From a virus: a stretch of DNA of 64,000 bases. The stretch is taken from IMG/VR virus record IMGVR_UViG_3300045988_128358. One strand, written 5' to 3'. Made by a program: the position numbers and the translations under genes. Every line of letters begins with the position of its first letter. Within the stretch, counting starts at the first letter, position 1. The notes below the pieces were generated by a model. It worked only from the letters and a program-made list of their open reading frames with translations. It was not told the DNA's origin and did no database searches. Below, in pieces: positions 46,861 to 62,959 of this stretch.

Positions 46861-47130
46861 TCAACAATGATACTCATATTTCACTAGCCAATATTCTTTG
46901 CCATCTTCTTTATAAAGAACAGCATGGTCATCATATGACGTTGTTACCAAACTTTTAAGTTTTTGAACAGCTTCATTTTTATTTCTATAAACTGCATTTT
47001 TATGAAAAGTTAAATTTCCATGATACCCACTTGATTCTTGCGGGTCATAAGCAAAACTGTTTAAATCTCGTAAAATTTGGGATTCTTTTATAGAGCTGTC
47101 ATAGCTCTTATACCCAATTAAATGGCTCAT
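46861..47130 (-). CDS. hypothetical protein
   Basis: 89-aa ORF. Confidence 0.4.
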   Translation of the reverse strand: MSHLIGYKSYDSSIKESQILRDLNSFAYDPQESSGYHGNLTFHKNAVYRNKNEAVQKLKSLVTTSYDDHAVLYKEDGKEYWLVKYEYHC

Positions 47131-47678
47131 AGCATATCTTTACACTCCTCATATTTATTTTTTATATCTTCAATAACTGTATCAAGTGAAACTGGATAAC
47201 AGTTATGAGAATCAATTCCTACATGATACATGAAAAAGTTATCTTCATAAAAATTATCTTTTTGATGTGTATGACCAAATAAATTTAAGGTCATATGATG
47301 CAATCCTGAATCATCAACATTACCAGTTAATGTTGGATAATGACTCATATAGAAATTATATTTCCTATATTTTAAAACTGTCGAATATCCAAGACATTCA
47401 AGACCATTTTCTTTATAAAGATTAACTCTTGTATTTGTATCATGGTTTCCAATAATAAAATACTTTTTACCATTCAGCCGTTTTAAACATTCAAGTCCGT
47501 GTTCATTATCTTTCAGCATTAAATCGCCTAAGATATACACTTCATCTTCTGGCTGCACCAGCTCATTCCATCTTCTAATAATTTCTTCATCATGGTCAAC
47601 AATATTCGGAAAACCTCTTGGTTCGTAGATAAAACCTTTATCATGACGAAAATGAAGGTCTGAAGTAACATAAATCAT
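47127..47678 (-). CDS. calcineurin-like metallophosphoesterase
   Basis: Phosphoesterase motifs DLHF.H, GDLM, GNHD. The stop overlaps the upstream kinase gene. Confidence 0.75.
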   Translation of the reverse strand: MIYVTSDLHFRHDKGFIYEPRGFPNIVDHDEEIIRRWNELVQPEDEVYILGDLMLKDNEHGLECLKRLNGKKYFIIGNHDTNTRVNLYKENGLECLGYSTVLKYRKYNFYMSHYPTLTGNVDDSGLHHMTLNLFGHTHQKDNFYEDNFFMYHVGIDSHNCYPVSLDTVIEDIKNKYEECKDML

Positions 47679-48193
47679 TCTACATACTCCTTATCAGCAT
47701 CTCCTACAATCAAAATATGTTTGTAGGTATATTTTTCATTGTAAGTTGGTTTATCAAAAGTATAAAACATTCTTCTGATTGTTCCTCTTGGAACATATGC
47801 ACGTCCCATTCCTTTTCGATTCTCATTCTGAGCAAGAATCTGAGCAAGTGGTAAATTAAATACAACTGGAATAATATCTACTCCATCCAAATCAAGTCTA
47901 TCAAGAACTCGATTTCTCGCTTTCTCACTCAGATGAGTTGCGTCTGCGAAAACTGCAATATCATCAGTTGCTTCATTTAAAGCATTTTTAATTCTATTAC
48001 AGAACTCATCAAAGACATCATCTTCATATTTGAAGATGTTTTTATCATCTTCGTTTAAAAACTCAGCTCTTACTTCATCTCTTGACACATGTACACACTT
48101 GTAAGTTGTTGCCTGTGCCATTTCCTTCTTGACGTAAGTCGTCTTCCCTGATCCCGCAGGACCGCACATAAGAAAGAGAATCTTGTGCTTCAT
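47675..48193 (-). CDS. P-loop polynucleotide-kinase-like kinase
   Basis: ILFLMCGPAGSGKTTYV is an AAA_33/PNK-type Walker A. Start set at MKHKILF. The full ORF runs to 48259. Confidence 0.6.
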   Translation of the reverse strand: MKHKILFLMCGPAGSGKTTYVKKEMAQATTYKCVHVSRDEVRAEFLNEDDKNIFKYEDDVFDEFCNRIKNALNEATDDIAVFADATHLSEKARNRVLDRLDLDGVDIIPVVFNLPLAQILAQNENRKGMGRAYVPRGTIRRMFYTFDKPTYNEKYTYKHILIVGDADKEYVE

Positions 48194-48425
48194 CTTTATA
48201 CACCCCATTTTCAAAATTTTCTTTAAACTCAAGAACATCTTCATATGATTTACATTCAATATGATTTACTTCTTGTTTGCAGAATACACAGTACATTTTC
48301 TTTCTATGAAATCTACCATGCTGATAACTATTACGACGTGGTAAACTCATATTCTTATGACCGCAATTCATACAATAAAAATCATTGATTATCATTTTTC
48401 CATTTCTTCGTCCCATTAGTATCAA
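48075..48425 (-). CDS. zinc-ribbon protein (extent uncertain; overlaps kinase ORF)
   Basis: CMNCGH...CVFCKQ. It is preceded by the promoter at 48454..48482 and overlaps the kinase frame for about 118 nt. Confidence 0.35.
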   Translation of the reverse strand: MILMGRRNGKMIINDFYCMNCGHKNMSLPRRNSYQHGRFHRKKMYCVFCKQEVNHIECKSYEDVLEFKENFENGVYKDEAQDSLSYVRSCGIREDDLRQEGNGTGNNLQVCTCVKR

Positions 48426-48453
48426 TTCCTTTTAATTATTTATTACATATATA

Positions 48454-48482
48454 TTATATAATATTTTTTATAAATTATCAAT
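48454..48482 (-). promoter_or_regulatory. sigma70-like promoter TTGATA-N17-TATAAT
   Basis: -35 at 48477..48482 and -10 at 48454..48459. Confidence 0.55.
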
Positions 48483-48502
48483 TAAGATAATTTATTGAGT
48501 AT

Positions 48503-48528
48503 TGGAAAGGATTTTTAAAAATCCTTTC
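48503..48528. repeat. perfect inverted repeat hairpin between two tandem promoter copies
   Basis: ggaaaggatttttaaaaatcctttcc. Confidence 0.5.
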
Positions 48529-48546
48529 CTTAACTTTCTATATATA

Positions 48547-48575
48547 TTATATAATATTTTTTATAAAATATCAAT
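48547..48575 (-). promoter_or_regulatory. sigma70-like promoter TTGATA-N17-TATAAT (second tandem copy)
   Basis: -35 at 48570..48575 and -10 at 48547..48552. It has the same about 40-nt block as at 48448..48485. Confidence 0.5.
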
Positions 48576-48799
48576 TAAATATCAATTTCTGCATCTAACA
48601 TAAAATTTTCAGCCTTAATTTTTTCCCAAGCCTCTTCTCTCTTCTTTTTTCGATGGAAGATAGATTTAACTTTCATAACTTCTGATATTGCTTCTGCACT
48701 GACCATAGCAGTAAGCATTGACCATTGCCCATCACAAGCTCGTCTATTAGCCCATTCAGAGAATTCATCAAATGTAACATCTTTCATTTCTTTCTTCAT
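48575..48799 (-). CDS. hypothetical protein
   Basis: 74-aa ORF. Confidence 0.4.
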   Translation of the reverse strand: MKKEMKDVTFDEFSEWANRRACDGQWSMLTAMVSAEAISEVMKVKSIFHRKKKREEAWEKIKAENFMLDAEIDI

Positions 48800-48801
48800 T
48801 C

Positions 48802-49980
48802 TTATCTCCTTTGTGTAATTCCAAAAGGACTATCACTATAATAGTCTCCTTCAATTTGCGGAGCATACTCATTACAATGAGTAATAATTATCTTTTTAGA
48901 AAATCTTGTATCAAGTTTGACTTTTTCAAAATCATTGTCGATTCGAGTAATTACATCACTCTTTTTCATTACACCATATCTTAATCCGCCCTGGAAATCA
49001 TTGTGTACATTTGTTTTATCAAACATCTCTGTATTGATTTCTTTTTTCTGAGCTTCCTGTTCAATAGGACCAATTCCATGTCTAGTCACATATGAACGTG
49101 TTACATAACAAGCATCAACTGAAATATCTTTTTTATCTGCTAAAATCTCAAAAGGATATGTTACTCCTGTGCGGGAGGTTGTATGCCAGATATCATCATA
49201 ATAAAAATCAAGTCCTAATCCTTGACCATTCTCAAAGATAAAACTATCAAACTTATTATAAAGACTATCAAAAGTGATAATTTCATTTCTCTCAAGGAAA
49301 AATAATATATCACTTCTAAAATTACAAATTAAAGATTGTCTACCAATAGAATGTTTATCAAAATATTCTCTATAAGTAGTAATTTTATCAAGCTGCACTC
49401 CACGTTTAAAAAGGATTACAAGGCAATCTCTCCAAATTTCTTCCATATGAAAAAGATACTCTTCTTCGGTCCAGCTTGCAAAATCAGCAATCGTAAAATG
49501 AGTTTTCATCGTAGGGTCGCCATATCTGTCCTCAATAGCACACCAAGAGCCAAAACCGCAAGAACCATATTCTCTTTCGCCATTCTGTTCGGCAATCCAA
49601 TTTTCTGTAACATGGTCAATCATCATATCAAAAGGAGTAATTACTTTTGCTTCTGGATCAACATATCCTTTTAAATTCAAAGGAAATAAATGCTGTTCTA
49701 ATAACTCATAATATTCCTTTGTATAAGTCATAGGGTGAACAAAGAAAGTTTTCGCAAAAAAAGTTGGGACTCCTTTTGCGGTTCCGCTTCCAAAATGATG
49801 ATATACATGCCGCAATTTTGCTGTATAATCAACTGTATGACCACGCTGAGCCGTTCCGTTATGAAAGATTACTACTGGTTTTAAGCCTCGGTTAAGAGCG
49901 TCCTCACAGAAATGATTTGTTACAAGACCTTTTCCTTCATCTCCAAAATTTGCTCCAATAACAATTTTACTTTCTTTCAT
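48802..49980 (-). CDS. adenylosuccinate synthetase homolog (PurA/PurZ-like)
   Basis: N-terminal VIGANFGDEGKGLVTNHF (PurA has GxQWGDEGKGKIVD) and HNGTAQRGHTV (PurA has GGHNAGHT). 392 aa, shorter than bacterial PurA, and the P-loop is GDEGKGL rather than GDEGKGK. Confidence 0.7.
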   Translation of the reverse strand: MKESKIVIGANFGDEGKGLVTNHFCEDALNRGLKPVVIFHNGTAQRGHTVDYTAKLRHVYHHFGSGTAKGVPTFFAKTFFVHPMTYTKEYYELLEQHLFPLNLKGYVDPEAKVITPFDMMIDHVTENWIAEQNGEREYGSCGFGSWCAIEDRYGDPTMKTHFTIADFASWTEEEYLFHMEEIWRDCLVILFKRGVQLDKITTYREYFDKHSIGRQSLICNFRSDILFFLERNEIITFDSLYNKFDSFIFENGQGLGLDFYYDDIWHTTSRTGVTYPFEILADKKDISVDACYVTRSYVTRHGIGPIEQEAQKKEINTEMFDKTNVHNDFQGGLRYGVMKKSDVITRIDNDFEKVKLDTRFSKKIIITHCNEYAPQIEGDYYSDSPFGITQRR

Positions 49981-49981
49981 C

Positions 49982-50284: not shown

Positions 50285-50318
50285 AAAAAATCAATTCCTT
50301 TCTTAACTTTCTATATAT

Positions 50319-50347
50319 ATTATATTATATTTTTAATAAAAAATCAA
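50319..50347 (-). promoter_or_regulatory. sigma70-like promoter TTGATT-N17-TATAAT
   Basis: -35 at 50342..50347 and -10 at 50319..50324. Confidence 0.55.
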
Positions 50348-50370
50348 AGGAGGACTATTGTCCTCCTTTT
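50347..50370 (-). terminator. intrinsic terminator
   Basis: aaaggaggactattgtcctccttt hairpin after the vWA gene. Its T-run overlaps the -35. Confidence 0.55.
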
Positions 50371-50375
50371 ATATT

Positions 50376-51296
50376 TTAAATATTCCAGCTTACTTCAGAA
50401 GAAGCTGTATCATTGTCATTAATGTCAATCTTAACTGGACCAGTTTCAAAAGCTGTTTCTGTTTTGTCGCCATGACTGATTACAATATCTGTAATAATCT
50501 TTGCGAGACCATTTAAGCCAGATACAAAATAGTGGTCATTTCCTACGAGTTTTCTCCAAGACTCGTCCAAGTCTGGGTGTCTACTGCACAGCCATCTGTA
50601 AGAGCTATCGTTGTCATCAATGGAAATATGATAAACGTCAAATTTTTCCAAAACTTCTTTCTGTAAATCTTCTGTTTCAACATCGCCCTGAAGAGAATCT
50701 CCAGTAGAACCAACTAATCCCCATTTTGGTAAATATGGATTAGGCTTTTCATCTCCCATTGTAATAATGATGCCTTTCTGACCTCTATCCCAGCAGTCAA
50801 GTTTACAATGATTTAATCCCATGTACCAAGCGGCTGTATAGGATTCAAAACTATTACCACCACCGCCGCCTTCAAAGAACATTTTATCAAGCTGCTCCGC
50901 AATTCGAATATCAGATTCAAACTGAGACATCTGAATTGGCGCTTTGTCATAAGCAAGGTCTCCAATTCCCATTACGCAGAACTCAACATCTTTAATGGAA
51001 TTATCTGCATAAATATCAGTCATAATCTCATTAAGTTTCTTAGCAACCTGAACTGCGGCATCGCCCATAGAGCCAGTTACGTCAAGTGCCAGAATAACTG
51101 GAACTGTATGCGGATGTTCATCAGAATCACAACATTCACGCATTACTCCTTTTGGATTTAAAGCTGCGTCAAGCTTACGAGATGTATAAAACTCCTGTGC
51201 TGAAAAAGCCATTGTATCAAACTCGTCAAGGGAAACTCCCCTTGAACGAGATGTATAATCACTAAACGCCTTAGTTGTCCAACTTCCTCCACCCAT
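50376..51296 (-). CDS. von Willebrand factor A domain protein
   Basis: MIDAS-like motif ILALDVTGSMGD. Confidence 0.7.
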   Translation of the reverse strand: MGGGSWTTKAFSDYTSRSRGVSLDEFDTMAFSAQEFYTSRKLDAALNPKGVMRECCDSDEHPHTVPVILALDVTGSMGDAAVQVAKKLNEIMTDIYADNSIKDVEFCVMGIGDLAYDKAPIQMSQFESDIRIAEQLDKMFFEGGGGGNSFESYTAAWYMGLNHCKLDCWDRGQKGIIITMGDEKPNPYLPKWGLVGSTGDSLQGDVETEDLQKEVLEKFDVYHISIDDNDSSYRWLCSRHPDLDESWRKLVGNDHYFVSGLNGLAKIITDIVISHGDKTETAFETGPVKIDINDNDTASSEVSWNI

Positions 51297-52057: not shown

Positions 52058-52082
52058 TTCTTTTCTTTAACTTTCTATATAT

Positions 52083-52111: not shown

Positions 52112-52119
52112 TTTACATA

Positions 52120-52426: not shown

Positions 52427-53167
52427 TTAATCCTCATAACCGCTATTTGCGTCAAACAATACATTTTGTTCCCAAGTATCCAAATCAATTAATGGTAAGC
52501 TTCCTGTAAAGAAACATCCACCATCAATATCAATTTTATGAGCTTTTCCCGCAGAATCTTTACAATAGAAATATGCTCCAGGAGAAGCTTTCTTTCCACT
52601 CATTTCACACATATATTCATAACAATAATGGCTTAAAAGAGGAACAGGAGTATGTCCATGAATCATAACTACATTATCCATTCCACCTTCTTCATCCCAT
52701 TCATCATCAAAATGTTCTCTATTCCAAATGAAATCATCTTCAAACTCTGGAAATCCTAAGTGCGGTCCAGGCGTAAAACCTGAATGAGATAAGATTACAA
52801 CTTCTCCATTTTTATTATCATAGCGATACCATTTAGGAAGATTGTCGATAATATCAATGTATTTTTCATCGCTTCCATCTGCCTCCCATTCTTCAACAGT
52901 AGATTGACCACCGTTAAAAGAGTGAAGTCTTGTGCAATGTTTTGCTCGCATAGAATCCGCAAACATCTGTTCGTGATTGCCGCAGATTAAAAAGAAATGT
53001 TTAGAATCTTCAAGAACTTCTTTTAAAATTTTAAATCCTTCTGGACCTCTATCTACACAATCACCTAAAACATAACAAAAACTATTGTCTGCATATACAA
53101 TATTTTTTACCATTTCCCATAAACCATACTGACCATGAAGGTCAGAACAACAATATACATGACTCAT
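52427..53167 (-). CDS. PPP-family Ser/Thr protein phosphatase (lambda-phosphatase-like)
   Basis: PPP phosphoesterase motifs DLHG, GDCVDRG, GNHE, HGHT. Confidence 0.75.
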   Translation of the reverse strand: MSHVYCCSDLHGQYGLWEMVKNIVYADNSFCYVLGDCVDRGPEGFKILKEVLEDSKHFFLICGNHEQMFADSMRAKHCTRLHSFNGGQSTVEEWEADGSDEKYIDIIDNLPKWYRYDNKNGEVVILSHSGFTPGPHLGFPEFEDDFIWNREHFDDEWDEEGGMDNVVMIHGHTPVPLLSHYCYEYMCEMSGKKASPGAYFYCKDSAGKAHKIDIDGGCFFTGSLPLIDLDTWEQNVLFDANSGYED

Positions 53168-53409: not shown

Positions 53410-53438
53410 ATTATATAATATTTTTTATAAAAAATCAA
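53410..53438 (-). promoter_or_regulatory. sigma70-like promoter TTGATT-N17-TATAAT with upstream terminator hairpin
   Basis: -35 at 53433..53438 and -10 at 53410..53415. Hairpin gccctatctttttgatagggc at 53439..53462. Confidence 0.55.
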
Positions 53439-53614
53439 TGCCCTATCTTTTTGATAGGGCATTACGTTAGTAATGGATTATATTTAAAATAATCTGTGCG
53501 AGTCCGCCAAAAATAAAACCTGTTAAATAAATATGATTTGGCTCATTAAATTTAGTGCTTAAAATAGCACCTACCGCACAAACTACAATAAATAAAATGA
53601 AAAAAAGAATATCT

Positions 53615-54154
53615 TTAGCCCAACGTTTGAAATTCAAAATTTCCACCTCTCTCTTTCATCTCAGCCTGATATACATTTCTGTCGTAAGAACCATGTGCAT
53701 AAGCCGCATTCATTGCTTTTTGATGGCAAATATCACATCTACAAACTCCAGAAGTACCAATACCTGTTGGATAAAATAGATATGTATATCCGCCGCCTGA
53801 ACAGCCATGATATCCATGTGGATTCATATGAACCTCAGTGTCATGTTTCTTTTTCCAATCTCTAATAGCTACACTTTCACTCTCAGTAATTGGAAAACCT
53901 CTCCACATATCAGCTAATGCTGCATCTCTCTGTTTCTTCATATCCTGCATTTCTTTAGTTGCATATGCTTCTTTTTCAAAACCATCTATTTTTTCTCTTA
54001 AAGAATCAATAGTTTTTTGTTTATCAAGAAGATTAACCTTAATATTATCAAGGTATTCATCAATAGTTTCTTCTCTTTTTAAAATAGGAATAGCACGACT
54101 TACAGATTTACCGTTTTGAAATCTATACATTGTTCCATCTGGACTATTAAACAT
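53615..54154 (-). CDS. hypothetical protein
   Basis: 179 aa with a Cys/His cluster GCSGGG...CRCDICH. Confidence 0.45.
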   Translation of the reverse strand: MFNSPDGTMYRFQNGKSVSRAIPILKREETIDEYLDNIKVNLLDKQKTIDSLREKIDGFEKEAYATKEMQDMKKQRDAALADMWRGFPITESESVAIRDWKKKHDTEVHMNPHGYHGCSGGGYTYLFYPTGIGTSGVCRCDICHQKAMNAAYAHGSYDRNVYQAEMKERGGNFEFQTLG

Positions 54155-54164: not shown

Positions 54165-54626
54165 CTACTGGTTCAAAAGTTCAGTAAGAACTTTATTGAT
54201 AAGTTTTCCATCTGCTTTGCCTTTAAGTTTAGGCATAATATTTTTCATAACCATGCCCTTCATTTTTGGTCCAATAGGCTCAGTAACGACCTGAGTAAGC
54301 TCAATTAACTCTTCATTAATAAAAGCTCGAATTTCATCTTCTGTCATAAGGGTTGGAGCAAATTCTTTAATTACTTCAAGTCGATATTTATAAGACTCTA
54401 AAAGGTCTGTTCTTGCGGCAGGGCAAGTATCAATCATCTCCTGCATAGTCTTTTGCTCTTTTAAGATAACTGCATCAACCATATCTTCTGGAATGTTATT
54501 TCGACAATTTTTATCAATAGCCGCCTTTTTAATGGCGTCAACAAGACTGGAAATAACATCTTTTCGAGCCTTATCTTTAGCCTTCATTGCGGTAACCATC
54601 TCTTTCATAACCATATCAAGTGTCAT
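54165..54626 (-). CDS. GatB/YqeY-domain protein
   Basis: N-terminal MTLDMVMKEMVTAMKAKDKARKDVISSLVDAIKKAAIDK matches the YqeY helical pattern. Confidence 0.5.
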   Translation of the reverse strand: MTLDMVMKEMVTAMKAKDKARKDVISSLVDAIKKAAIDKNCRNNIPEDMVDAVILKEQKTMQEMIDTCPAARTDLLESYKYRLEVIKEFAPTLMTEDEIRAFINEELIELTQVVTEPIGPKMKGMVMKNIMPKLKGKADGKLINKVLTELLNQ

Positions 54627-55374: not shown

Positions 55375-55608
55375 TTATCTCCTTGTCTTAAACCAATCTC
55401 TAATACGACTAACAAACATAATACCATTCAAAATTGTACAAACTGTCCAACATACACAACATATAATTGCACAAACAAGTTGGGTTGTTGTTGTTGCCAT
55501 TGTAATTACAATCCCATATAACGCTGCAAGGACTAAATTTAATGTAGTTAAAAATCCATATAATGCAATCATTTTTTTATACCTTTCTTTTTTACTCCAT
55601 TTCCACAT
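55375..55608 (-). CDS. hypothetical membrane protein
   Basis: Two hydrophobic helices. Confidence 0.35.
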   Translation of the reverse strand: MWKWSKKERYKKMIALYGFLTTLNLVLAALYGIVITMATTTTQLVCAIICCVCWTVCTILNGIMFVSRIRDWFKTRR

Positions 55609-56798
55609 TAAGAGTGAAAACGGAGTAAAAATTCATTAGATACTGCTTTAAAAGATTTAATACCATCCTGAGACCTGAATACAAGACCTTCTCTCATGCC
55701 ACCATCAAGCACAGACTCTCCAGTAGCAATGTCAAGTAATTCATCAACAGTATCAGGTAGAACAAATTCTTTATCTACAATAGGAACCCATGGAATACCA
55801 AACTCAGCCATTGCTTTTTCAGCCATTACAGAGTTCCAACGACCTTCCGCAGATGTGATAAAGTTAAAGCCCATAAAGCAATGCTCTTTTGTAGAGTAAT
55901 CTCTCTTCTGGATACCATCTCCATAAGTCTCGCCCTGTAAAGTTACCCACTCCAAATCTGGACGGTTCATCAGAATCTGTTTTAAAGTTTTCTCAATCTG
56001 ATATTTCTCTGCCATTTCAGTGTAAACATTGGTGTCATAAAAGCAAGCTTTATCAGGCTTATCAAAAACTACGTTACGAGAACATACATAAAAATCAAAC
56101 TTTTCTTTCTTCAAGAAACGAGTTTTTCTACGAATCATAGTGAAAGTAGTAGAAGTACCATCAATTTTTTCAGTGGCAACCCAATGAGATTTGTCCTCAA
56201 GAATCCATGGCATATTCTGAACTCGCTCTTCATCAGTCTTAGAAACCCAAGCCGGCCAGGTTGCCTTCTTATCGCCTTTCTTACCAAAAAATACGAAAAG
56301 TAATTTTTTGCCCCAGGTTCTTCTCATTAACCATCTGAATGGCTGGTGCGCAAATAGCTTACCATTTCTCTGTGCCATTCTCTTATATTTGTCCACAGAA
56401 GGAGCTTTTCTGATATTATCTTCCTCAACAGAATAAGTTACTTCAAGCTCTTTGGTCAAAAAATCTCCAAGTTTGTGAGCATCTTTATCCCATCCAAAAT
56501 CTTCAAAACCCATTAAAAGTCCCTGAGAAATTACAGTACCCTTGAAGTATTTCTGAGTTTTAATTTTAAAATGCTTTCCTTCAAGGAACATAAATGGTTC
56601 TTTTGCCGGTACTTTAGAGTCAATCTCAAAGTAAACCGCTAAATCACCTGGCTTAAACTGGTCTTTACGAACCATGATATGCCAACCATTTACGACAGCT
56701 ATTTCTACTCTGTCAGCTCCTTCGATAGGACGAATCTCATCAACTTTAACAACATAAGCAAGCTCTCTTTCTTTCTTCTCATTCAGCATACCTATCAT
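55608..56798 (-). CDS. RNA ligase (Rnl-type nucleotidyltransferase with N-terminal OB-like domain)
   Basis: KxDG motif ATEKIDGTSTTF. N-terminal beta-barrel-like VVKVDEIRPIEGADRVEIAVVNG...GDLAVYF resembles the Rnl5/NgrRnl-type OB domain. Confidence 0.65.
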   Translation of the reverse strand: MIGMLNEKKERELAYVVKVDEIRPIEGADRVEIAVVNGWHIMVRKDQFKPGDLAVYFEIDSKVPAKEPFMFLEGKHFKIKTQKYFKGTVISQGLLMGFEDFGWDKDAHKLGDFLTKELEVTYSVEEDNIRKAPSVDKYKRMAQRNGKLFAHQPFRWLMRRTWGKKLLFVFFGKKGDKKATWPAWVSKTDEERVQNMPWILEDKSHWVATEKIDGTSTTFTMIRRKTRFLKKEKFDFYVCSRNVVFDKPDKACFYDTNVYTEMAEKYQIEKTLKQILMNRPDLEWVTLQGETYGDGIQKRDYSTKEHCFMGFNFITSAEGRWNSVMAEKAMAEFGIPWVPIVDKEFVLPDTVDELLDIATGESVLDGGMREGLVFRSQDGIKSFKAVSNEFLLRFHS

Positions 56799-56821: not shown

Positions 56822-56850
56822 ATTATATAAAAATTTTAAAAATAAATCAA
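56822..56850 (-). promoter_or_regulatory. sigma70-like promoter TTGATT-N17-TATAAT
   Basis: -35 at 56845..56850 and -10 at 56822..56827. Confidence 0.55.
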
Positions 56851-57422
56851 TTAAGATTTGTTTCTTTCAAACAATCGTGGTAAATTTTAATAAGGTTTTT
56901 CTTATTTAGAAATGCCTTATTTCCAATACCATTTTGCTCTCTCCACGCTAAACGATATAATACTTTATCTATAAACATTTTAGTCGCAGGGTGCATGGCA
57001 ATAGGATTTTTGGTTTTATTCTGCCACCATTTATATTCTCCTTGATATGTAAAAGTATCTCCCATATAAGCGTGTCCCGCACCTAAATAATCACAGAGCA
57101 GCTCTAAAAGATATTTGTCTGGCATTGGTAGCGCAGTGCCGCCTTTATCGAGGTTGTCAAACCAGTACTCGTAATGATGTCGATTCCGACCTTTATGATG
57201 CTGCCAAGCTAAAGACATCCCGTTCTCCTCTTTACAAGCATCTATTGGAGAACGAGTCCCCTGCCAATATTTGACACCTTCCCAAAATTCAACGGGAGAA
57301 AATTTGGATAAGTCATGTGTAATTCCCTGCTTATAAAGACCAACTTTAAAACAGTATTTTCCTACCCAATATTTATGTTTGCATACAGTTTTTAAATGTC
57401 CAAAAAAGTTTTTAATTTTCAT
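56847..57422 (-). CDS. hypothetical protein (His-rich conserved block HHKGRNRHHYEYW)
   Basis: 191-aa ORF. Confidence 0.45.
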   Translation of the reverse strand: MKIKNFFGHLKTVCKHKYWVGKYCFKVGLYKQGITHDLSKFSPVEFWEGVKYWQGTRSPIDACKEENGMSLAWQHHKGRNRHHYEYWFDNLDKGGTALPMPDKYLLELLCDYLGAGHAYMGDTFTYQGEYKWWQNKTKNPIAMHPATKMFIDKVLYRLAWREQNGIGNKAFLNKKNLIKIYHDCLKETNLN

Positions 57423-57425
57423 ATT

Positions 57426-57812
57426 TTATTCCTCTAAATATTTATACTCTATTTTATGTAAAGAATCATCTTTTTTATAGTAAATATAGGTGCATTTTAC
57501 CTGTATTTCATCTCCTTCCTTAATAGTATTAAATATAGAAGAAGAAACTGTTACTTTTTCATTATTTACGCCATATAAATAATATGAATGAGTTGTAACA
57601 GGAATAAGAACCTTCCCACTCATTACCACAGAATGATGCACATCATCCTCTTTATTTATAACTTCAACTGTTCTTACTTCAGTTTTTAAATAAAATTGGT
57701 CATAATACTTCCTTATCCCAGCTACAATCCCAATACAAGCTGCGACAATAAGCACTACAATTACAATGTGCTTCATAATTTCTTTTAGTCTTTGTTTTTT
57801 CCAATATTCCAT
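57426..57812 (-). CDS. hypothetical membrane-anchored protein
   Basis: N-terminal TM IVIVVLIVAACIGIVAGI. Confidence 0.4.
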   Translation of the reverse strand: MEYWKKQRLKEIMKHIVIVVLIVAACIGIVAGIRKYYDQFYLKTEVRTVEVINKEDDVHHSVVMSGKVLIPVTTHSYYLYGVNNEKVTVSSSIFNTIKEGDEIQVKCTYIYYKKDDSLHKIEYKYLEE

Positions 57813-58141
57813 TATTCAACTCTCCAACCAGCTTTTTCACAAACTTTTTTCATATTCTGAACTCCAACAGGATTCATACTATGAAATTTAAAAGTTGCAT
57901 AAATCTTCCATTTCCGCAATCTTTGACATGCTTCAAGCCAATCAAGAATCTTGATATAATCTCCACCATTCTGATAATAATCTCCCGCATCATGGTCAAG
58001 ATTAATTTCATCTACTTCAAGAATACTTCCTTCTGGTCTCACCCGAGTAGTAAGATAAGTTTTTGCTTCCCAAACACTTTTAAGCCAAATATAAGAATCA
58101 TCTGGGGCCGGCCGCATATCATCAATCCAAAACTTAATCAT
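57812..58141 (-). CDS. hypothetical protein with DDxR...LDHD motifs
   Basis: WIDDMRPAP and INLDHDAGDYY form a conserved phage small-protein pattern. Confidence 0.45.
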   Translation of the reverse strand: MIKFWIDDMRPAPDDSYIWLKSVWEAKTYLTTRVRPEGSILEVDEINLDHDAGDYYQNGGDYIKILDWLEACQRLRKWKIYATFKFHSMNPVGVQNMKKVCEKAGWRVE

Positions 58142-58969
58142 TTATTTCACCTCAAACTTCCAATAATAAAAGTTATACTGTTTCTTTGTATTATAAGACT
58201 TTTTAATCCTCTTGGCAACATTTTTTACATTTACAGTCGGGTTATTTTTCATACTCTTATCATATGATTTAATAAACTCAACTGCTTCTTTAAGATTTTC
58301 AAACTTTTTAGTTTTTTCCTCTTCAAAGTTTTTTGTAGAACAACAAAAGACATCAAAACGAGTATCTTCATATTCAATCTGATCGGTTGTAATTTCTTTA
58401 TATTCCATAAAGACGTTTGCATCTACCTCTGAAGCTTTTTCATTTTTACAGCCTTCATAAACCTCTTTTAACATCTTCGCATCATCAAGAGAATTATGGG
58501 ACTGAACAATTTCCTCGCCTCTGAAATATTCGCAGACTTTGGCGAGATTAATTAATTTAATCAAACCAAAATGAACCTTAACAGCAGGAGCAAAATCTTT
58601 CATATCTGTATTCATATAGCCAAGAATTGCTTTTGCTTTAAAGTTATTTGTTTTGCGGAAGGTTGCTTTAATAAAATCTGTATCACAATTCCCATAGCAA
58701 TAAAACTCAGGAATATCATCGCCGCAATCCTCAAAACAAAAATCAAAAAACTTATTGAATACTTCTTCTGGAGAGGGAGCGTCCGCAACCATTTCTGTAG
58801 TAATACCTGTTAAGTCGGTAATAAACTTAGAAACATTCTTCTTTGTATTTTCTGGCGTATGTACAAGAGAATAAAACTCTTTACCATCTTCTCTTACACA
58901 TCCAACAGAAATAATATAATTGGAAAACTGCATTGCTTCAAAGTCAATAAAATATTTCATATATATCAA
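58142..58969 (-). CDS. DEDDh 3'-5' exonuclease (DnaQ/epsilon-like)
   Basis: Exo I FIDFEAM and Exo III HNSLDDAKML, with a C-terminal extension. Confidence 0.7.
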   Translation of the reverse strand: MIYMKYFIDFEAMQFSNYIISVGCVREDGKEFYSLVHTPENTKKNVSKFITDLTGITTEMVADAPSPEEVFNKFFDFCFEDCGDDIPEFYCYGNCDTDFIKATFRKTNNFKAKAILGYMNTDMKDFAPAVKVHFGLIKLINLAKVCEYFRGEEIVQSHNSLDDAKMLKEVYEGCKNEKASEVDANVFMEYKEITTDQIEYEDTRFDVFCCSTKNFEEEKTKKFENLKEAVEFIKSYDKSMKNNPTVNVKNVAKRIKKSYNTKKQYNFYYWKFEVK

Positions 58970-58977
58970 TCCCTCTC

Positions 58978-59160: not shown

Positions 59161-59195
59161 TTTCTTTTTTATCCTTTCCTTAACTTTCTATATAT

Positions 59196-59224
59196 ATTAT
59201 ATTATAATTTTAATAAAAAATCAA
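59196..59224 (-). promoter_or_regulatory. sigma70-like promoter TTGATT-N17-TATAAT with upstream terminator
   Basis: -35 at 59219..59224 and -10 at 59196..59201. Hairpin aaaggaaaaac...gtttttccttt at 59226..59254. Confidence 0.55.
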
Positions 59225-59236
59225 TAAAGGAAAAAC

Positions 59237-60049
59237 TTATTCAGTTTTTCCTTTATCAAAATTAGGAGATTTTCTGAAATAAGTTGAAGATAAATAATTT
59301 GGGTCGTTCCATCTATTCCATACCTCCTCTAAATCTTCGATTGCTTTAAAATATTGTTCAACGTGCGGGCGTTCAAATCTATCTGCATGGAAGTGACCAA
59401 AAAGCCAAACGTTCCAATTAATTTTATCTTTAAAAGAATCAAGCCAAACTTCCATAGAATCATCTACGGTAGACTGGTCAATCATAGATAAAAATAAATC
59501 AGTCGGTTCCCAACTTAATGGACAAGTATGAGTAAAAACAAAATCAAAGCTTTGTCCCGCATACATTGCCTCAATAGCTTGCATTTCGGCTTCTGTAAGT
59601 TGTTCATTTGGATACCAAGTAAAATGATTTTCAAGTCTATACCATTTATCTACAGAATAAGCTCCACCTATAACCAATGTATTATGACCAAGAAAATCAT
59701 AATTAGAGCCGTCCATGAGATAATGGATATGAGGATAACCGGGTTCAATGAAAACATAATTCGCAACATCATCATCCCAGACTTCTTTAATACCTTCAAC
59801 ATCTTCTGGACGAGCTTCATGATTCCCCCTTACTAAATAAAAAGTACATCCATAATTTTCAAGTTGCATCTTGATATCATGCCGCCTTGCCTTACTTTTA
59901 TAAAAATTTACGCCTGCATCTCCCAAGATAATAATACCAGTCTCTTTTGGATTTTTTATTTCAAGCCATTCAAAACGGTCCATGCAGCCATGAGTATCTC
60001 CTGTTATGAAAAATTGTTTAATCATTTCTTTCCTCCAATTCAAAAGCAA
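59237..60049 (-). CDS. calcineurin-like metallophosphoesterase
   Basis: Phosphoesterase motifs GDTHG, GDAG, GNHE, GHFH. Confidence 0.7.
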   Translation of the reverse strand: MLLNWRKEMIKQFFITGDTHGCMDRFEWLEIKNPKETGIIILGDAGVNFYKSKARRHDIKMQLENYGCTFYLVRGNHEARPEDVEGIKEVWDDDVANYVFIEPGYPHIHYLMDGSNYDFLGHNTLVIGGAYSVDKWYRLENHFTWYPNEQLTEAEMQAIEAMYAGQSFDFVFTHTCPLSWEPTDLFLSMIDQSTVDDSMEVWLDSFKDKINWNVWLFGHFHADRFERPHVEQYFKAIEDLEEVWNRWNDPNYLSSTYFRKSPNFDKGKTE

Positions 60050-60842
60050 TACTTTTCTTTATAATTTCTGCTTGGACTTCTTGAAGAAGATTTTCAGCTT
60101 CTTCATTGGTATGATTAAATTCAGAATCTTTTGTATATGGAATACAAATTTCATTAATGTGAGCCATATGTTCATCTGCGACTTTAATAGCTTCTTCTCT
60201 TGAATAAAGACCAGTTTTAATATCTTTTAAATATTGCGGATTAGCTGGACAAAGACATTCTTTATACGGGGCCCCTGCGATATATTTATCGAGATATTCA
60301 TCAATTCTCACAAGCTGATAAAGCTGTTTGGGGTCATAATCGAATTTTTCAAAAGCTTCTTTATGTGTTTCGGTTTCTTTGGTAAGAGCATATCTTTTTC
60401 CAAGAGCAATACCAGACATAGCCTTTACTGCAAAGTAAGGGTTATAATGTGCGATAATCTCATTTGCCGCAATTAATTTATTCCATTCTTTTGCATACAT
60501 TGGATTAATGATTTTATAATCCGTAAAAAGAATTTCAATAAAATTTAGATTTTGTTTGCGGAAAGTGTCAAACATAAGTCTAATATCTTTAAAATCAATA
60601 TGTTCTTTATTAGCTCTAACATGAGTTGTTGACATAGGTTTACGATTATAAATGAACTCATTTAAAGTCGGAGTGGTAATAAGTTTTGTATCAATGTCAG
60701 AATCCTCAGTTTCAAGACCATAATTCTGACTACCTTGAAGAAAAATACCAACAATATTATTTTCAGCAAAATATTGTTTGGATTCAAGATAGTGTTCTTG
60801 AATACCACTTGCTGTTTTAATCACTTTATTAAGATTTGCCAT
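60018..60842 (-). CDS. Pol-beta-superfamily nucleotidyltransferase
   Basis: GSQNYGLETEDSDID follows the GS...D.D nucleotidyltransferase signature. Confidence 0.55.
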   Translation of the reverse strand: MANLNKVIKTASGIQEHYLESKQYFAENNIVGIFLQGSQNYGLETEDSDIDTKLITTPTLNEFIYNRKPMSTTHVRANKEHIDFKDIRLMFDTFRKQNLNFIEILFTDYKIINPMYAKEWNKLIAANEIIAHYNPYFAVKAMSGIALGKRYALTKETETHKEAFEKFDYDPKQLYQLVRIDEYLDKYIAGAPYKECLCPANPQYLKDIKTGLYSREEAIKVADEHMAHINEICIPYTKDSEFNHTNEEAENLLQEVQAEIIKKSIAFELEERND

Positions 60843-60874
60843 ATTTTCTCACCTTCCTTTAATTCTCTATATAT

Positions 60875-60903
60875 ATTATAATAAAATTTTAATAAAAAAT
60901 CAA
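60875..60903 (-). promoter_or_regulatory. sigma70-like promoter TTGATT-N17-TATAAT with upstream terminator
   Basis: -35 at 60898..60903 and -10 at 60875..60880. Hairpin aagggagaaagt...actttctccctt at 60905..60936. Confidence 0.55.
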
Positions 60904-60933
60904 AAAAGGGAGAAAGTATTTAAACTTTCTCCC

Positions 60934-61290
60934 TTAATCATCGGTTGCCCATTGTCCCCTTTTAACCAGTCTTATAAGTTCATAATCATGCTGGGTCGGC
61001 TCAACATAAAACTTATATTTTGCAGAAGCATATTCTGGAATATCAAAATGATGATTTGCATTCCATACATAATCTAAACAATCAATAACAGCTTGTTGTT
61101 TATCTTTGTCAGTTCCTTCTGTATTTGCAGAAATATAAGCTAAGACTTCTTCTTCTTCACTTCCCCAGTCATAAGATGGAAAAATTTGCATTTTTTCAGC
61201 AGGTTTAGGACGAAAAGAAAAACTTAAAGATGTAAATAATACACATAAAAGAATAATTAAAAACATTTTTTCTTTCCAACTAAAATTCAT
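60934..61290 (-). CDS. hypothetical secreted/membrane protein
   Basis: N-terminal signal-like segment MFLIILLCVLFTSLSFS. Confidence 0.45.
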   Translation of the reverse strand: MNFSWKEKMFLIILLCVLFTSLSFSFRPKPAEKMQIFPSYDWGSEEEEVLAYISANTEGTDKDKQQAVIDCLDYVWNANHHFDIPEYASAKYKFYVEPTQHDYELIRLVKRGQWATDD

Positions 61291-61304
61291 ACATGAATCC
61301 TTTC

Positions 61305-61733
61305 TTATAAGAAATAATGTAATACAGGAATATATTTATCCCGCAATTTTTCAGTAAGCGTATCAGTTAAAGTCATATGGTCTTTCATATCTGCCTGCTT
61401 AACGATGAAAGCATAATCATCTTTTGCGTCAAGAATTTTATGAATATAATCTTCATAATTTTCTTGTGCATTTTTAGTTAAAAGAACTACTGAATTATAG
61501 CTTTCTATGCCTAAAATAGACATTAAATCTTCTTTTGGACATTCAGTATCTTCTAATAAATCGTGTGCCAATGCAATCATATAAGCTTCTGTTATATCCA
61601 TCCTTAAAAGTTCAGCTTTTGCGGTCGCATATTCAGCAACCCGCAAAGCATGAGCTAATTTTTTCTTAGGATAATATTGAACTGCCAAATTAAATAATTT
61701 ATTCACTTTTGTAATATCATAATTACAACCCAT
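61305..61733 (-). CDS. HD-domain phosphohydrolase
   Basis: The H...HD motif is HALRVA...AHDLLED. 142 aa. Confidence 0.6.
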   Translation of the reverse strand: MGCNYDITKVNKLFNLAVQYYPKKKLAHALRVAEYATAKAELLRMDITEAYMIALAHDLLEDTECPKEDLMSILGIESYNSVVLLTKNAQENYEDYIHKILDAKDDYAFIVKQADMKDHMTLTDTLTEKLRDKYIPVLHYFL

Positions 61734-61903
61734 TAACGTCCCTCCTCACAAAGACCTAAAGAAATTTCTCCTGTATATCCACAATAATACATAGAAAGTC
61801 GTTTAGAACCTTTTTTAGAAAAATAATACCAAGTATCCTGTTCCCAACCATTAGTATCCCAGTCATCATCTCTATCATAACCAAGTTTATCAAAAACATC
61901 CAT
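61733..61903 (-). CDS. small hypothetical ORF (56 aa)
   Basis: MDVFDKLGYDRDDDWDTNGWEQDTWYYFSKKGSKRLSMYYCGYTGEISLGLCEEGR. Its stop overlaps the HD start (taATGg). Confidence 0.25.
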   Translation of the reverse strand: MDVFDKLGYDRDDDWDTNGWEQDTWYYFSKKGSKRLSMYYCGYTGEISLGLCEEGR

Positions 61904-61906
61904 AAA

Positions 61907-62041
61907 CTAACATGGACCAAGATTTAAAAGGCTAAGTTCAATATTTGTAGCATTACCGACTTCAAGCTCATGAATCACTCCTCTTATAAAAGGCATTACT
62001 CTATCAATTTCTTCCTTAGAAATACTATACCCTCTTACCAT
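61907..62041 (-). CDS. small hypothetical ORF (44 aa) ending at in-frame TAG
   Basis: MVRGYSISKEEIDRVMPFIRGVIHELEVGNATNIELSLLNLGPC, then TAG. The next ATG is 3 nt downstream in the same frame. Confidence 0.25.
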   Translation of the reverse strand: MVRGYSISKEEIDRVMPFIRGVIHELEVGNATNIELSLLNLGPC

Positions 62042-62911
62042 TTATTCTTCTCCTATATAAATTAAATCATCAACGTATTTACGGTCTTCACCTTTTAAAA
62101 TAGGCATGTTTCTATCAATAGCCCAAATAGGTCTTTCTTCAATAATTGTAGTTGTAACTTTATCTTCTCCAAAAGGCTGAGGTTCTCTTTTTATATTTTC
62201 AGTTACTTTTGTTGCGACTTTAATACATGCTGTACCTCGTTTACATGGTACTGTAAAATTATTCCAATTAATGCCATACTTGGTCATTAGCATATCTTGA
62301 ATCATATCACAAGTTTTATTTTGAAGTTCATCATGTGAGAAATTAGCCTGTCCAACCATCTGAATACTATTTCTGGTTGCATCAAGCTGTCGCCAATAAA
62401 TAAGGTTAGTTACTTCTTCTTTTGGAATATTAAAACATCTGGCATCAAAACATGCCCCTCTTTCTACTGCACTTATATAATTATCAAGTAAACCTTCTCT
62501 TCTTTTTACAAGAGGGTCATTAGTTAAATTATATTCAACTACATTTTCAGAAAAATATTTATTAAAAGCCATTGTTGCCATAGAAGCTGATACAGAAGTT
62601 AATTTTTGAACTTCATAATCAAACCAAGCATCTGAAGTGAATTTTTGATAATCTACTAAAATCAGAGTAATTTCATCTGACTGGGTATATCCAAAAACGC
62701 AGCCTTGAATATTTTCACATAAATATTTCATTGTTTTTTGCATTGCATCCATTAGCACAAAGTCAAATGGTTTTTGAAAACCCCTTGTAAAAGTATGAAA
62801 TGCCTTGCCGTCCAGCCTAATTGCTACTGGAGTTCTTCTCATAAGTCGAGTCTTTGGAATATTTTCATAAAAGACTTTCATACGAGTGCCTAAATCATCT
62901 CTTATCGGCAT
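62042..62911 (-). CDS. Thg1-like protein (tRNA-His guanylyltransferase family, 3'-5' nucleotidyltransferase)
   Basis: VAIRLDGKAFHTFTRGFQKPFDFVLMDAM...GYTQSDEITLIL...SASMATMAF...IYWRQLDATRN parallels Thg1 VVRLDGRNFHRF..KPND..L.LM...GQSDEYSFVF...ASQFAS...SWRQADCHIN. Start set at MPIRDD. Confidence 0.75.
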   Translation of the reverse strand: MPIRDDLGTRMKVFYENIPKTRLMRRTPVAIRLDGKAFHTFTRGFQKPFDFVLMDAMQKTMKYLCENIQGCVFGYTQSDEITLILVDYQKFTSDAWFDYEVQKLTSVSASMATMAFNKYFSENVVEYNLTNDPLVKRREGLLDNYISAVERGACFDARCFNIPKEEVTNLIYWRQLDATRNSIQMVGQANFSHDELQNKTCDMIQDMLMTKYGINWNNFTVPCKRGTACIKVATKVTENIKREPQPFGEDKVTTTIIEERPIWAIDRNMPILKGEDRKYVDDLIYIGEE

Positions 62912-62959
62912 TTTATTTATTCCTTTCTTTCTATTTTTTTTAGAGTTTTTATACATTTA

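Follow-up and report, generated by a model that had tools for sequence, protein, structure and literature searches.

What holds together the many predicted RNA-end enzymes that are encoded near one end of a 64,000-nucleotide stretch of viral DNA (IMG/VR record IMGVR_UViG_3300045988_128358; the window below is the whole of this stretch), and on what would they act? The genes in question, here called the island, lie on the minus strand, as do all credible genes of the window. A preliminary description, covering positions 47127-62956, had proposed a toolkit for RNA repair consisting of a kinase, two metallophosphoesterases (MPEs), an RNA ligase, a Thg1-like protein (TLP), a nucleotidyltransferase, an HD hydrolase and a YqeY-like protein. 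Profile searches agree with it at the level of superfamilies: all eight open reading frames (ORFs) lie on the minus strand where they had been placed, each matches the superfamily named for it, and the catalytic or metal-binding motifs are intact in all eight. We conclude that the island is probably an early-expressed region for the reversal of damage to RNA, mainly tRNA, in which two conserved backbones are interleaved with unrelated accessory genes. Together they provide a candidate enzyme with an intact active site for each step: removal of 3'-phosphates, 5'-phosphorylation, sealing, refilling of 5' and 3' ends, and possibly removal of pyrophosphate from the CCA end. The basis of this reading is family membership, intact active sites, operon structure and synteny, a fusion of Zn-ribbon and kinase, and promoter enrichment; the substrates, and a role in countering host defences, are predictions from sequence.

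The first backbone, which would heal and seal broken ends, comprises four genes, listed here in the direction of transcription together with a further phosphoesterase gene, MPE2, which enters the comparison with known systems (numbers in brackets are E-values, here and below).

55608..56798, minus strand: predicted Rnl5 (NgrRnl/DraRnl)-type ATP-dependent RNA ligase, with an N-terminal OB domain and a nucleotidyltransferase domain
52427..53167, minus strand: MPE2, lambda-phosphatase/Pnkp-phosphatase-like metallophosphoesterase (phrog_246, 3.3e-33)
48075..48425, minus strand: Zn-ribbon protein (CxxC...CxxC), the last 119 nt of which overlap the kinase ORF
47675..48193, minus strand: P-loop 5'-kinase of the polynucleotide kinase (PNK) type (AAA_33, 2.9e-17; phrog_505 'polynucleotide kinase', 9.5e-18)
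47127..47678, minus strand: MPE1, small aq_1665-type metallophosphoesterase (PF12850, Metallophos_2, 8e-8; phrog_547, 1.6e-43; PDB 1xm7, 5e-7)

The association of these genes was followed in 80 viral loci around TLP homologs and 21 loci around ligase homologs, each extending +/-10 kb and searched with all island proteins (tblastn at 1e-5, which misses distant homologs). Lineages are clusters at >=85% identity, and all counts depend on that threshold; the IMG/VR contigs are unverified. The 21 ligase loci represent 14 lineages, 13 of them assessable (L084 is excluded, its locus ending 128 bp after the ligase). Ligase, kinase and MPE1 are present in all 13, with MPE1 following the kinase every time; in 12 of the 13 the Zn-ribbon gene lies between ligase and kinase and all four genes share one strand, at ligase identities down to 47%. 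In L100 a stretch of 3.9 kb contains ligase, kinase and MPE1, and no Zn-ribbon gene was detected. The four-gene operon spans 2.6-4.5 kb in 10 lineages outside the window's clade, but 9.7-10.7 kb within it, because ~7 kb of other genes (55608 down to 48425) are inserted between ligase and Zn-ribbon. The preliminary description had left room for scattered housekeeping homologs; this is not what is found, as the ligase-kinase-MPE1 operon recurs in divergent phages and a larger set that includes the TLP is kept in order in contig L104, discussed below.

The ligase appears to be of the Rnl5/NgrRnl type, lacking a C-terminal domain: it matches PF21189 (PHA02142 OB) over residues 13-96 (3.3e-21), PF09414 (RNA_ligase) over residues 205-386 (2.1e-20), and the Naegleria RNA ligase 5cot across both domains (9e-25); TIGR02306 (RNA_lig_DRB0094) is matched at 6e-25 with 87.8 bits, under the equivalog cutoff of 151. 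Aligned to NgrRnl, all motifs are kept: K211-I-D-G (motif I, 211-214), LQGE290 (motif III), E370GLVF (motif IV) and FK384AVS (motif V). The enzyme that had been described as an Rnl-type ligase is thus indeed an RNA ligase with a KIDG motif, but of the Rnl5/NgrRnl rather than the T4 Rnl1 type; a T4 Rnl1-type tRNA ligase was considered and rejected, since Pfam returned PF09414 and PF21189 alone and the PDB matches are to Naegleria Rnl5 entries alone. The succession of OB and nucleotidyltransferase domains, and the alignment of motifs I, III, IV and V, are common to the RNA ligases of Naegleria gruberi and Deinococcus radiodurans; the island ligase differs from NgrRnl (5cot; ~30% identity) in its longer interdomain linker (396 aa vs 340 aa) and in belonging to a phage operon with a kinase and a phosphoesterase. 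It is not needed for the joining of DNA, because a separate NAD-dependent DNA ligase is encoded in the window (30485-32431).

The kinase retains a GPAGSGKT P-loop (residues 11-18); its D39 and R42 align with the SSD/R of Clostridium thermocellum Pnkp, and the N-x-x-R motif is aligned as well. Its best PDB match is the kinase domain of that Pnkp (4gp7, 3.5e-4), with T4 PNK (1ly1) at 0.067; in NCBIfam it matches TIGR03574 (PSTK, 6e-10) and TIGR04075 (bacter_Pnkp, 2.8e-6), all far under the equivalog cutoffs. Among GenBank (cultured) phages its relatives occur solely in Tsamsa-like Bacillus phages, directly after a 'tRNA ligase' gene.

The Zn-ribbon protein belongs to no Pfam family. A profile search of 1.84 billion representatives yielded 383 clusters, mostly of proteins of 80-110 aa that stand alone; an in-frame fusion of Zn-ribbon and kinase is seen in at least four representative clusters (P0223, P0278, P0331, P0336), and in the two fusions compared (P0223, P0278) the kinase half is 34% identical to the window kinase. 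Because of this domain fusion we consider the Zn-ribbon to be functionally tied to the kinase; fused to it or encoded beside it, it would be the likely substrate-targeting part. In an AlphaFold2 (AF2) model it forms a four-stranded zinc ribbon with a helix, whose top PDB folds are chains of ~45-54 residues in bacterial ribosome entries (TM-score normalised to the target 0.75-0.82, at non-significant E-values of 0.08-0.2); we take these chains to be bL33. An RNA-binding role is suggested by them, and stays a suggestion because of those E-values. By sequence, the profile gave one doubtful HEPN/UPF0332 match in the PDB (0.011), and tblastn against GenBank phages gave no match.

In the window the kinase ATG lies inside the Zn-ribbon ORF, in the +1 frame and directly after a conserved GVYKD (DNA ...TATAAAGATGA...; overlap 48075-48193), at the point where other family members fuse Zn-ribbon and kinase in frame. 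The overlap measures 119 nt here and 71 nt in L104 (11620-11690; 39-45% identical). It could stem from gene fission with an internal start or could produce a fusion by frameshift; a plain internal start of the kinase is the simpler reading than a programmed frameshift, because a possible ribosome-binding site, GGGG, stands 10-13 nt upstream of the ATG.

MPE1 keeps its DxH, GD, GNHD, H113 and GHTH motifs and is translationally coupled to the kinase by an ATGA overlap. The preliminary description had likened this pair to the kinase-phosphatase module of bacterial Pnkp: MPE1 is the kinase's operon partner, as supposed, but the Pnkp-like phosphatase by homology is MPE2, which matches TIGR04075 (bacter_Pnkp) at positions 227-323 (1.8e-6) and keeps its DxH, GDxxDRG, GNHE and GH motifs. 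MPE2 also matches the 737-position RNA-ligase profile phrog_8238 at 174-347, and the kinase matches the same profile at 2-139.

Two known systems offer themselves for comparison. T4 Pnkp and Rnl1 repair PrrC-cleaved tRNA-Lys, and the logic is the same in the island: a 2',3'-cyclic phosphate would be cleared, a 5'-OH phosphorylated by a kinase of the same P-loop PNK clade, and the break sealed at the expense of ATP. In T4, however, a HAD phosphatase domain is fused to the kinase and the ligase is Rnl1, whereas the island has a metallophosphoesterase on a separate polypeptide, an Rnl5-type ligase with an N-terminal OB domain, and a Zn-ribbon as additional subunit. With the Pnkp of the C. thermocellum Pnkp/Hen1 system the island shares metallophosphoesterase chemistry for 3'-end healing; its kinase domain is the best structural relative of the island kinase, and MPE2 matches its phosphatase segment. 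Pnkp is a single polypeptide, while kinase, MPEs and ligase are separate ORFs in the island, a stand-alone Rnl5 ligase taking the place of the C-terminal adenylyltransferase; among the island ORFs scanned none matched a Hen1-like methyltransferase.

The second backbone, which would restore damaged ends, lies upstream of the first in the direction of transcription.

62042..62956, minus strand: predicted bacterial-type TLP, of the 3'-5' nucleotidyltransferase family (PF04446, Thg1, 1e-29; phrog_4717, 2.7e-84)
61305..61733, minus strand: HD protein of 142 aa resembling RelA/SpoT-type small alarmone hydrolases (SAHs) (HD Pfam, 7.6e-5)
60934..61290, minus strand: g60934, 118-aa protein with hydrophobic N-terminus, accompanying the TLP-HD-RlaP block (no Pfam or PHROG match)
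60018..60842, minus strand: putative divergent RlaP-family Pol-beta nucleotidyltransferase, overlapping the start of MPE3 (phrog_388, 1.7e-18)
59237..60049, minus strand: MPE3, metallophosphoesterase, coupled to the RlaP gene (PF00149, 6.4e-8; phrog_1649, 5e-23)

The TLP (for which a start at 62911 is as plausible as the one at 62956) matches the Bacillus thuringiensis TLP 4kgk at 6.5e-54, and human, yeast-type and archaeal Thg1 at 1e-8 to 5e-7; it is thus placed in the bacterial TLP subgroup, distant from the eukaryotic Thg1 that adds G-1. The catalytic acidic residues on which its assignment in the preliminary description hinged are kept on alignment: the two-metal carboxylates are D49 (RLDG) and D94-E95 (QSDEIT), identical to the residues in 4kgk and equivalent to human D29, D76 and E77; residue 43 aligns to residue 23 of 3otb, so that D49 corresponds to position 29. 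From its close relative in B. thuringiensis (4kgk/4kgm), with which it shares the conserved carboxylates, it differs in being phage-encoded, in an insertion of ~30 residues in the C-terminal half, and in adjoining SAH, RlaP and MPE genes. According to work of the Jackman laboratory, bacterial and archaeal TLPs reportedly repair tRNA 5' ends in vitro. A literature search for phage Thg1-like tRNA repair found no papers; placed in a defined operon beside an SAH and RlaP, the function of a bacterial-type TLP becomes testable.

The HD protein is best matched in the PDB, at modest scores, by the (p)ppApp hydrolase 7smg (3.3e-5) and by 7qps/7qpr (2.7e-4), then by Mesh1 and the hydrolase domains of Rel; it matches TIGR00691 (spoT_relA) at 1.4e-4. 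Its predicted metal ligands are H28, H57-D58-L-L-E61-D62 (HDxxED) and D115, and HDxxED is found in 12 of 12 HD orthologs adjoining a TLP. It is therefore classed as a putative enzyme of the small alarmone hydrolase type, not of the type found in CCA enzymes; a DatZ-like (Z-genome) reading was dropped, as the PDB matches are RSH/SAH-type (RSH, RelA/SpoT homolog). SAH enzymes strip the pyrophosphate that toxSAS enzymes add to the tRNA CCA end (bioRxiv 10.1101/2021.04.30.441581). With the SAHs that counter toxSAS (Kurata et al. 2021; 7smg) the island protein shares the HDxxED signature of RSH hydrolases, yet it belongs to a very short (142 aa) phage subfamily with a C-terminal KxADMKDH...DTLT motif of its own, and its genomic partner is a TLP, not a toxSAS gene.

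The nucleotidyltransferase gives weak Polbeta and NTP_transf_2 matches, and neither its sequence nor its family profile finds a match in the PDB. Within its family (homologs 50-84% identical) 10 of 16 members match PF10127, the best at 9.1e-8, and three carry a precomputed PF10127 match; of the motifs G37-S38 and D47/D49/D51, residues S38, D49 and D51 are invariant in the family. We thus take it to be a divergent branch of RlaP. The suggestion that nucleotidyltransferase and HD protein form a CCA-type pair for tRNA 3' ends has to be given up: a CCA-adding enzyme was rejected because PF01743 is not matched, the nucleotidyltransferase being RlaP-like and the HD protein a RelA/SpoT-type SAH. RlaP adds one or two nucleoside monophosphates to the 3'-OH of damaged RNA and restores aminoacylation (Carruthers, Fatma and Huang 2025 preprint, PMC12776372). 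In Pseudomonas it resides in RtcB/RtcA operons (PMC12776372), so that both Pol-beta nucleotidyltransferases are tied genomically to RNA ligases; that of the island is divergent, falls under the Pfam cutoff, and is paired with a metallophosphoesterase and a 5'-phosphate (ATP-dependent) ligase instead of RtcB. RlaP and ligase genes are 3.2 kb apart in the window, RlaP lies inside the ligase operon in L096, and it is part of the block in L104. MPE3 keeps its DxH, GD, GNHE and GHFH motifs.

Across the 26 TLP lineages sampled no partner gene of the TLP is universal. MPE3-like genes are the widest of its neighbours (7 of 26 lineages); the SAH is found near it in five of the 85% clusters, the window's own clade accounting for two of these, and it usually lies immediately downstream, following the TLP in 3-4 lineages, always with HDxxED; the cREC gene, encoding a 'cyclic-phosphate processing receiver' protein, is near it in five lineages. 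Adjacency of nucleotidyltransferase and MPE3 is kept in L035, L063 and L104, and homologs of g60934 (39-44% identity) stand between HD and nucleotidyltransferase genes in L035 and L063. In these two the order is TLP, SAH, g60934, RlaP, MPE3, exonuclease, cREC, YqeY, MPE2, at 38-65% identity. The two backbones meet on the 12.8-kb contig L104, which carries TLP, SAH, RlaP, MPE3, two unknown ORFs, exonuclease, ligase, a gene like g53615 (see below), MPE2, Zn-ribbon and kinase; its genes follow the window's order within ~9.5 kb at 36-62% identity, and TLP, SAH, RlaP and MPE3 are translationally coupled. The exonuclease gene is there immediately upstream of the ligase, and MPE2 immediately upstream of the Zn-ribbon-kinase pair.

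Early expression is suggested by a promoter-like element, TTGATW-N17-TATAAT, of which the window has 13 copies where 0.35 would be expected, all of them on the coding strand; eight of the 13 sites lie between 48.4 and 60.9 kb. The many strong promoters of the preliminary description are real to this extent, but a generic sigma-70 scan of the window shows no enrichment (77 sites vs 83 +/- 9 expected). Those assigned to genes of the island are:

60875..60903, minus strand: promoter-like TTGATT-N17-TATAAT, upstream of RlaP-MPE3 and directly after the hairpin 60906-60935
59196..59224, minus strand: promoter-like element upstream of a small Zn ORF, exonuclease, cREC and DUF5662, after the hairpin 59221-59259
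56822..56850, minus strand: promoter-like element upstream of the ligase
53410..53438, minus strand: promoter-like element upstream of g53197 and MPE2, after the hairpin 53436-53464
48453..48574, minus strand: two tandem promoter-like elements (48546-48574 and 48453-48481), upstream of Zn-ribbon-kinase-MPE1

Hairpin terminators are enriched in the window as well (17 vs 6.5 +/- 2.5), and four of the promoter-like elements come directly after one. At these four hairpins (60906-60935, 59221-59259, 53436-53464 and 50346-50369) the -35 box of a TTGATT-N17-TATAAT follows immediately, in three of the four cases overlapping the hairpin by 2-4 nt, so that a terminator-promoter cassette is repeated between units of accessory genes.

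From these assignments a course of repair can be proposed. In the heal-and-seal branch 2',3'-cyclic or 3'-phosphates would be taken off by MPE1, perhaps with MPE2 and cREC, 5'-OH ends would receive a phosphate from the PNK-type kinase under the guidance of its Zn-ribbon partner, and the Rnl5-type ligase would close the resulting 3'-OH/5'-P nick in a duplex or stem context. In the end-restoration branch the TLP would replace 5' nucleotides that have been lost, by template-dependent 3'-5' synthesis; 3' ends that have been trimmed would gain one or two nucleotides through RlaP; the DEDDh exonuclease would trim, and the removal of phosphates would fall to MPE3. The SAH-type HD enzyme would relieve the tRNA CCA end of its 3'-pyrophosphate or break down (p)ppGpp/(p)ppApp, and a PARG/macro protein encoded in the same island might handle ADP-ribose adducts or by-products. 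Defences of the host by which tRNAs are cut, trimmed or blocked chemically have turned out to be common; among the phage answers to them, to our knowledge, that of T4 Pnkp/Rnl1 alone has been worked out experimentally. A bolder version, in which both operons constitute one tRNA-rescue machine against cleavage in anticodon or stem, loss of 5' or 3' nucleotides and pyrophosphorylation of the CCA end by CapRel/toxSAS, with the Zn-ribbon as the RNA-targeting subunit of the kinase, is rather doubtful. If true, it would give a bacterial-type Thg1-like protein its first physiological role and the kinase a previously unrecognised subunit.

Several observations weigh against a dedicated region for RNA repair. 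The kinase is only weakly similar to characterised PNKs (E-values of 3.5e-4 and 0.067), and the nucleotidyltransferase of the window scores 16.4 bits against PF10127, under the cutoff of 23. The MPE1 family is found in 1430 phage records and is thus not RNA-specific by itself. Rnl5 ligases (NgrRnl, DraRnl) are sealers of duplex nicks that prefer an RNA 3'-OH strand, and we know of no demonstration that they repair breaks in anticodon loops. In most of the 26 TLP lineages the TLP stands among apparent replication genes (SSB-like and DnaB-like, by eye), with no other repair gene within 6 kb. Finally, the island is made up of at least eight short promoter-bounded units, with genes for a PurA-like enzyme, a vWA-like protein and membrane proteins in between.

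The enzymes might serve the maturation and upkeep of the phage's own tRNAs instead of countering a defence. In that case 5' ends, such as position -1 of tRNA-His or those mis-cut where tRNA genes are tightly packed, would be made or put right by the TLP, 3' ends would be adjusted by RlaP and the exonuclease, and quality control would fall to the ligase set. tRNA and Rfam scans of the window itself found nothing, yet tRNA arrays lie just upstream of the island, 4-10 kb upstream of the TLP, in three lineages: the window's clade (L002, L005), L035/L063 and L008. In L008 a tRNA-His abutting a tRNA-Pro has T at -1 and A at 73 and would suit post-transcriptional 5' addition, and the 164 GenBank records with a TLP include Bacillus, Caulobacter and Prevotella Lak phages, large phages such as often carry many tRNA genes. 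Many TLP loci, however, have no tRNA gene within 10 kb; ordinary bacterial tRNA maturation produces no 5'-OH or cyclic-phosphate ends and needs no operon of kinase, phosphoesterase and ligase; and SAH, macro/PARG and cREC have no known part in maturation. We therefore regard this explanation as unlikely to account for the island, although the maturation and counter-defence readings are not mutually exclusive.

The setting of the island invites a further explanation. Upstream of it lie genes for DNA polymerase, topoisomerase II subunits, NAD-dependent DNA ligase, RecJ, a DnaB-type helicase, NrdD, PhoH and an endolysin-like protein; because of this content (DNA polymerase, topoisomerase II, RecJ, DnaB, NrdD, PhoH) the window is the replication and early-accessory region of a large phage. 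Unrelated early accessory genes might have gathered in a permissive insertion region beside these genes of replication and nucleotide metabolism: cyclic oligonucleotides, alarmones and ADP-ribose derivatives, as nucleotide signals of host immunity, would be degraded by the phosphoesterases, HD and macro proteins, the kinase would be one for nucleotides, and ligase and exonuclease would act, during replication, on nicks in RNA-primed or ribonucleotide-containing DNA. The many transcription units with unrelated genes interspersed would fit such an assembly, as would the preference of Rnl5 ligases for duplex nicks with an RNA 3'-OH strand and the ligase operons of L089 and L094, which are followed by RNase H-like and GyrB/topoisomerase II-like ORFs (by eye). 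The HD-alarmone hydrolases, Macro and calcineurin-like enzymes are also given counter-signalling roles in the part of Iyer et al. 2021 (PMC7824862) considered here. Nevertheless this explanation is quite improbable, for it leaves unaccounted the strict operon of ligase, Zn-ribbon, kinase and MPE1 across 12 lineages, the Zn-ribbon-kinase fusion, the affinity of the kinase to the clade of Pnkp, PSTK and T4 PNK, and the kept order of TLP, HD, RlaP, MPE3, exonuclease, ligase, MPE2, Zn-ribbon and kinase at 36-62% identity, and in all published biochemistry TLP and RlaP act on RNA ends.

How far, then, is an RNA-repair island of this composition new? The preliminary description had held the combination to be broader than is commonly described, and this does not hold: Iyer, Anantharaman, Krishnan, Burroughs and Aravind (2021; Viruses 13:63, PMC7824862) describe an RNA-repair and counter-defence complement of jumbo phages which, in the part considered here, comprises polynucleotide kinases, HAD, calcineurin and HD phosphatases, ATP-dependent ligases, RlaP, CCA enzyme, Thg1, cREC, Macro and HD-alarmone hydrolases. 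This is the same parts list, together with phage tRNAs, and it is read there as a counter to attack on the translation apparatus. TLP homologs, moreover, are found in 164 GenBank phage records, most of the matches listed being annotated as tRNA-His guanylyltransferase. The concept and all enzyme families being already in the literature, the discovery is incremental. As far as that part of Iyer et al. 2021 goes, the island differs in three respects: the main ligases there are Rnl1, Rnl2 and RtcB, whereas that of the island is of the Rnl5/NgrRnl type; Thg1 is sporadic there but stands in a syntenic block with SAH, RlaP and MPE here; and a Zn-ribbon partner of the kinase, which the island has, is not mentioned. 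The phage, at ~195 kb, is also just under the usual 200-kb jumbo threshold. Within the literature covered, no description was found of an Rnl5 ligase whose operon strictly includes a kinase with Zn-ribbon partner and an aq_1665-type phosphoesterase, or of the linkage of TLP, SAH, RlaP and MPE.

The island contains further genes of relevance. Six had been missed by the preliminary description: those for cREC, DEDDh exonuclease, MPE2, Zn-ribbon, DUF5662 and PARG/macro, the last lying just outside its interval. Those not yet listed, together with the YqeY-like protein, which it had placed correctly at 54165-54626, and g53615, are:

63171..63980, minus strand: microbial PARG/macro-domain protein of the TIGR02452 family (PF10021, 2.2e-28; TIGR02452, 4.4e-59, above cutoff)
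58142..58969, minus strand: DEDDh (RNase T-type) 3'-5' exonuclease, extended by ~100 aa at its C-terminus (PF00929, 1.1e-16)
57812..58141, minus strand: cREC protein, its gene abutting that of the exonuclease (PF20274, 3.6e-14; 53.6 bits vs cutoff 27)
56847..57422, minus strand: DUF5662 all-alpha protein, directly upstream of the ligase (PF18907, 9.5e-34)
54165..54626, minus strand: YqeY/GatB-C-terminal-like protein (PF09424, 3.9e-24)
53615..54154, minus strand: g53615, 179-aa Cys-containing protein between ligase and MPE2 (no Pfam or PHROG match)

Read in the direction of transcription, the island begins with PARG/macro, which adjoins the TLP gene in all close relatives; homologs of PARG and DUF5662 are also near the TLP in L010. 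The exonuclease carries the motifs D9-x-E11 and H158-x3-D162. The cREC gene is 1 kb from the ligase, in the same island as PARG/macro; Iyer et al. 2021 (PMC7824862, in the part considered here) introduced the family and connected it with RNA ligases. The DUF5662 protein is all-alpha in its AF2 model (pLDDT 94.2), with an invariant His/Asp cluster (H36-D37, H75-H76, H82-H83, D111); a fold search of the PDB with this model gave no significant match, those to the HD superfamily being non-significant. It co-occurs with YqeY, AAA_33 kinase and topoisomerase genes in the unrelated contig L107. The YqeY-like protein is possibly a tRNA-binding accessory; its gene is directly upstream of the TLP in L008 and within the block in L035 and L063. 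A homolog of g53615 (35% identical) occupies the same position in L104.

Genes for which no link to RNA is evident occur in the interval too, namely those for the PurA-like enzyme, the vWA-like protein and small membrane proteins. The first two form a trio with a third: PurA-like (48802-49980), vWA-like (50376-51296; DxTxS) and a Gly/Met-rich protein with an acidic tail (51296-52057); the vWA-like label was read from the sequence by eye, Pfam giving no match. The trio recurs 3-8 kb from the TLP in 23 of the 80 loci, representing five lineages. For the PurA-like gene a PurZ reading was rejected: GDEGKG and GHT are kept as in PurA, the PDB gives a weak PurA match (2.7e-5) and no PurZ at E<=1e-3, and the PurZ label comes from PHROG alone. 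PurZ has specific substitutions at the substrate-contact sites of PurA, for example S23 in S-2L (PMC8342488); we infer that S23 maps onto the P-loop Asp of the PurA-like gene.

The tRNA genes near related islands can be described further. The PARG-TLP end has just upstream of it, at 2802-4423 in L002 and 3594-5215 in L005, a tRNA array with Leu(UAA), Gly(UCC), Lys(UUU) and Cys(GCA), by equivalence ~5.6-7.2 kb past the right end of the window (coordinate 64000); L035 and L063 have 6-7 tRNAs at the same relative position. The tRNA-His of L008 (5508-5657, ~4 kb upstream of the TLP) abuts the 3' end of the tRNA-Pro, its A at 73 being the discriminator, and is a possible natural substrate for 5'-end addition. 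The L100 contig, which carries the ligase module, has at 15879-15954 a tRNA predicted by ARAGORN with a CUA (amber-reading) anticodon, which may serve stop-codon suppression or recoding.

As to the phage itself, the window is AT-rich (GC ~0.32), and close relatives in IMG/VR measure 188-196 kb; the phage is an uncultured one of ~195 kb, probably with a host among the Firmicutes/Clostridia. Such a host is weakly hinted at because the ligase is shared with three contigs in metagenome-assembled genome bins of Clostridia or 'Bacillales' (bins unverified), and the sigma-A-like promoter consensus agrees with it. There is no close DNA relative among GenBank phages, the one match being of 73 bp. A reading of the island as anti-phage defence was dropped, as a PADLOC scan for such genes gave just a generic DEDDh match and a weak dCTPase match. 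Directly downstream of the kinase-MPE1 unit lies a gene for a SPFH/flotillin-like protein of 510 aa (45280-46812), and in L092, L098 and L100 homologs of it (53-59% identity) likewise stand a few kb away from the ligase module. Finally, the DNA polymerase of the window seems to be split: the ORF at 14888-16258 corresponds to the N-terminal part of phrog_405 and that at 11165-13756 to the C-terminal part, and between the two lies an ORF of 261 aa (13893-14678).

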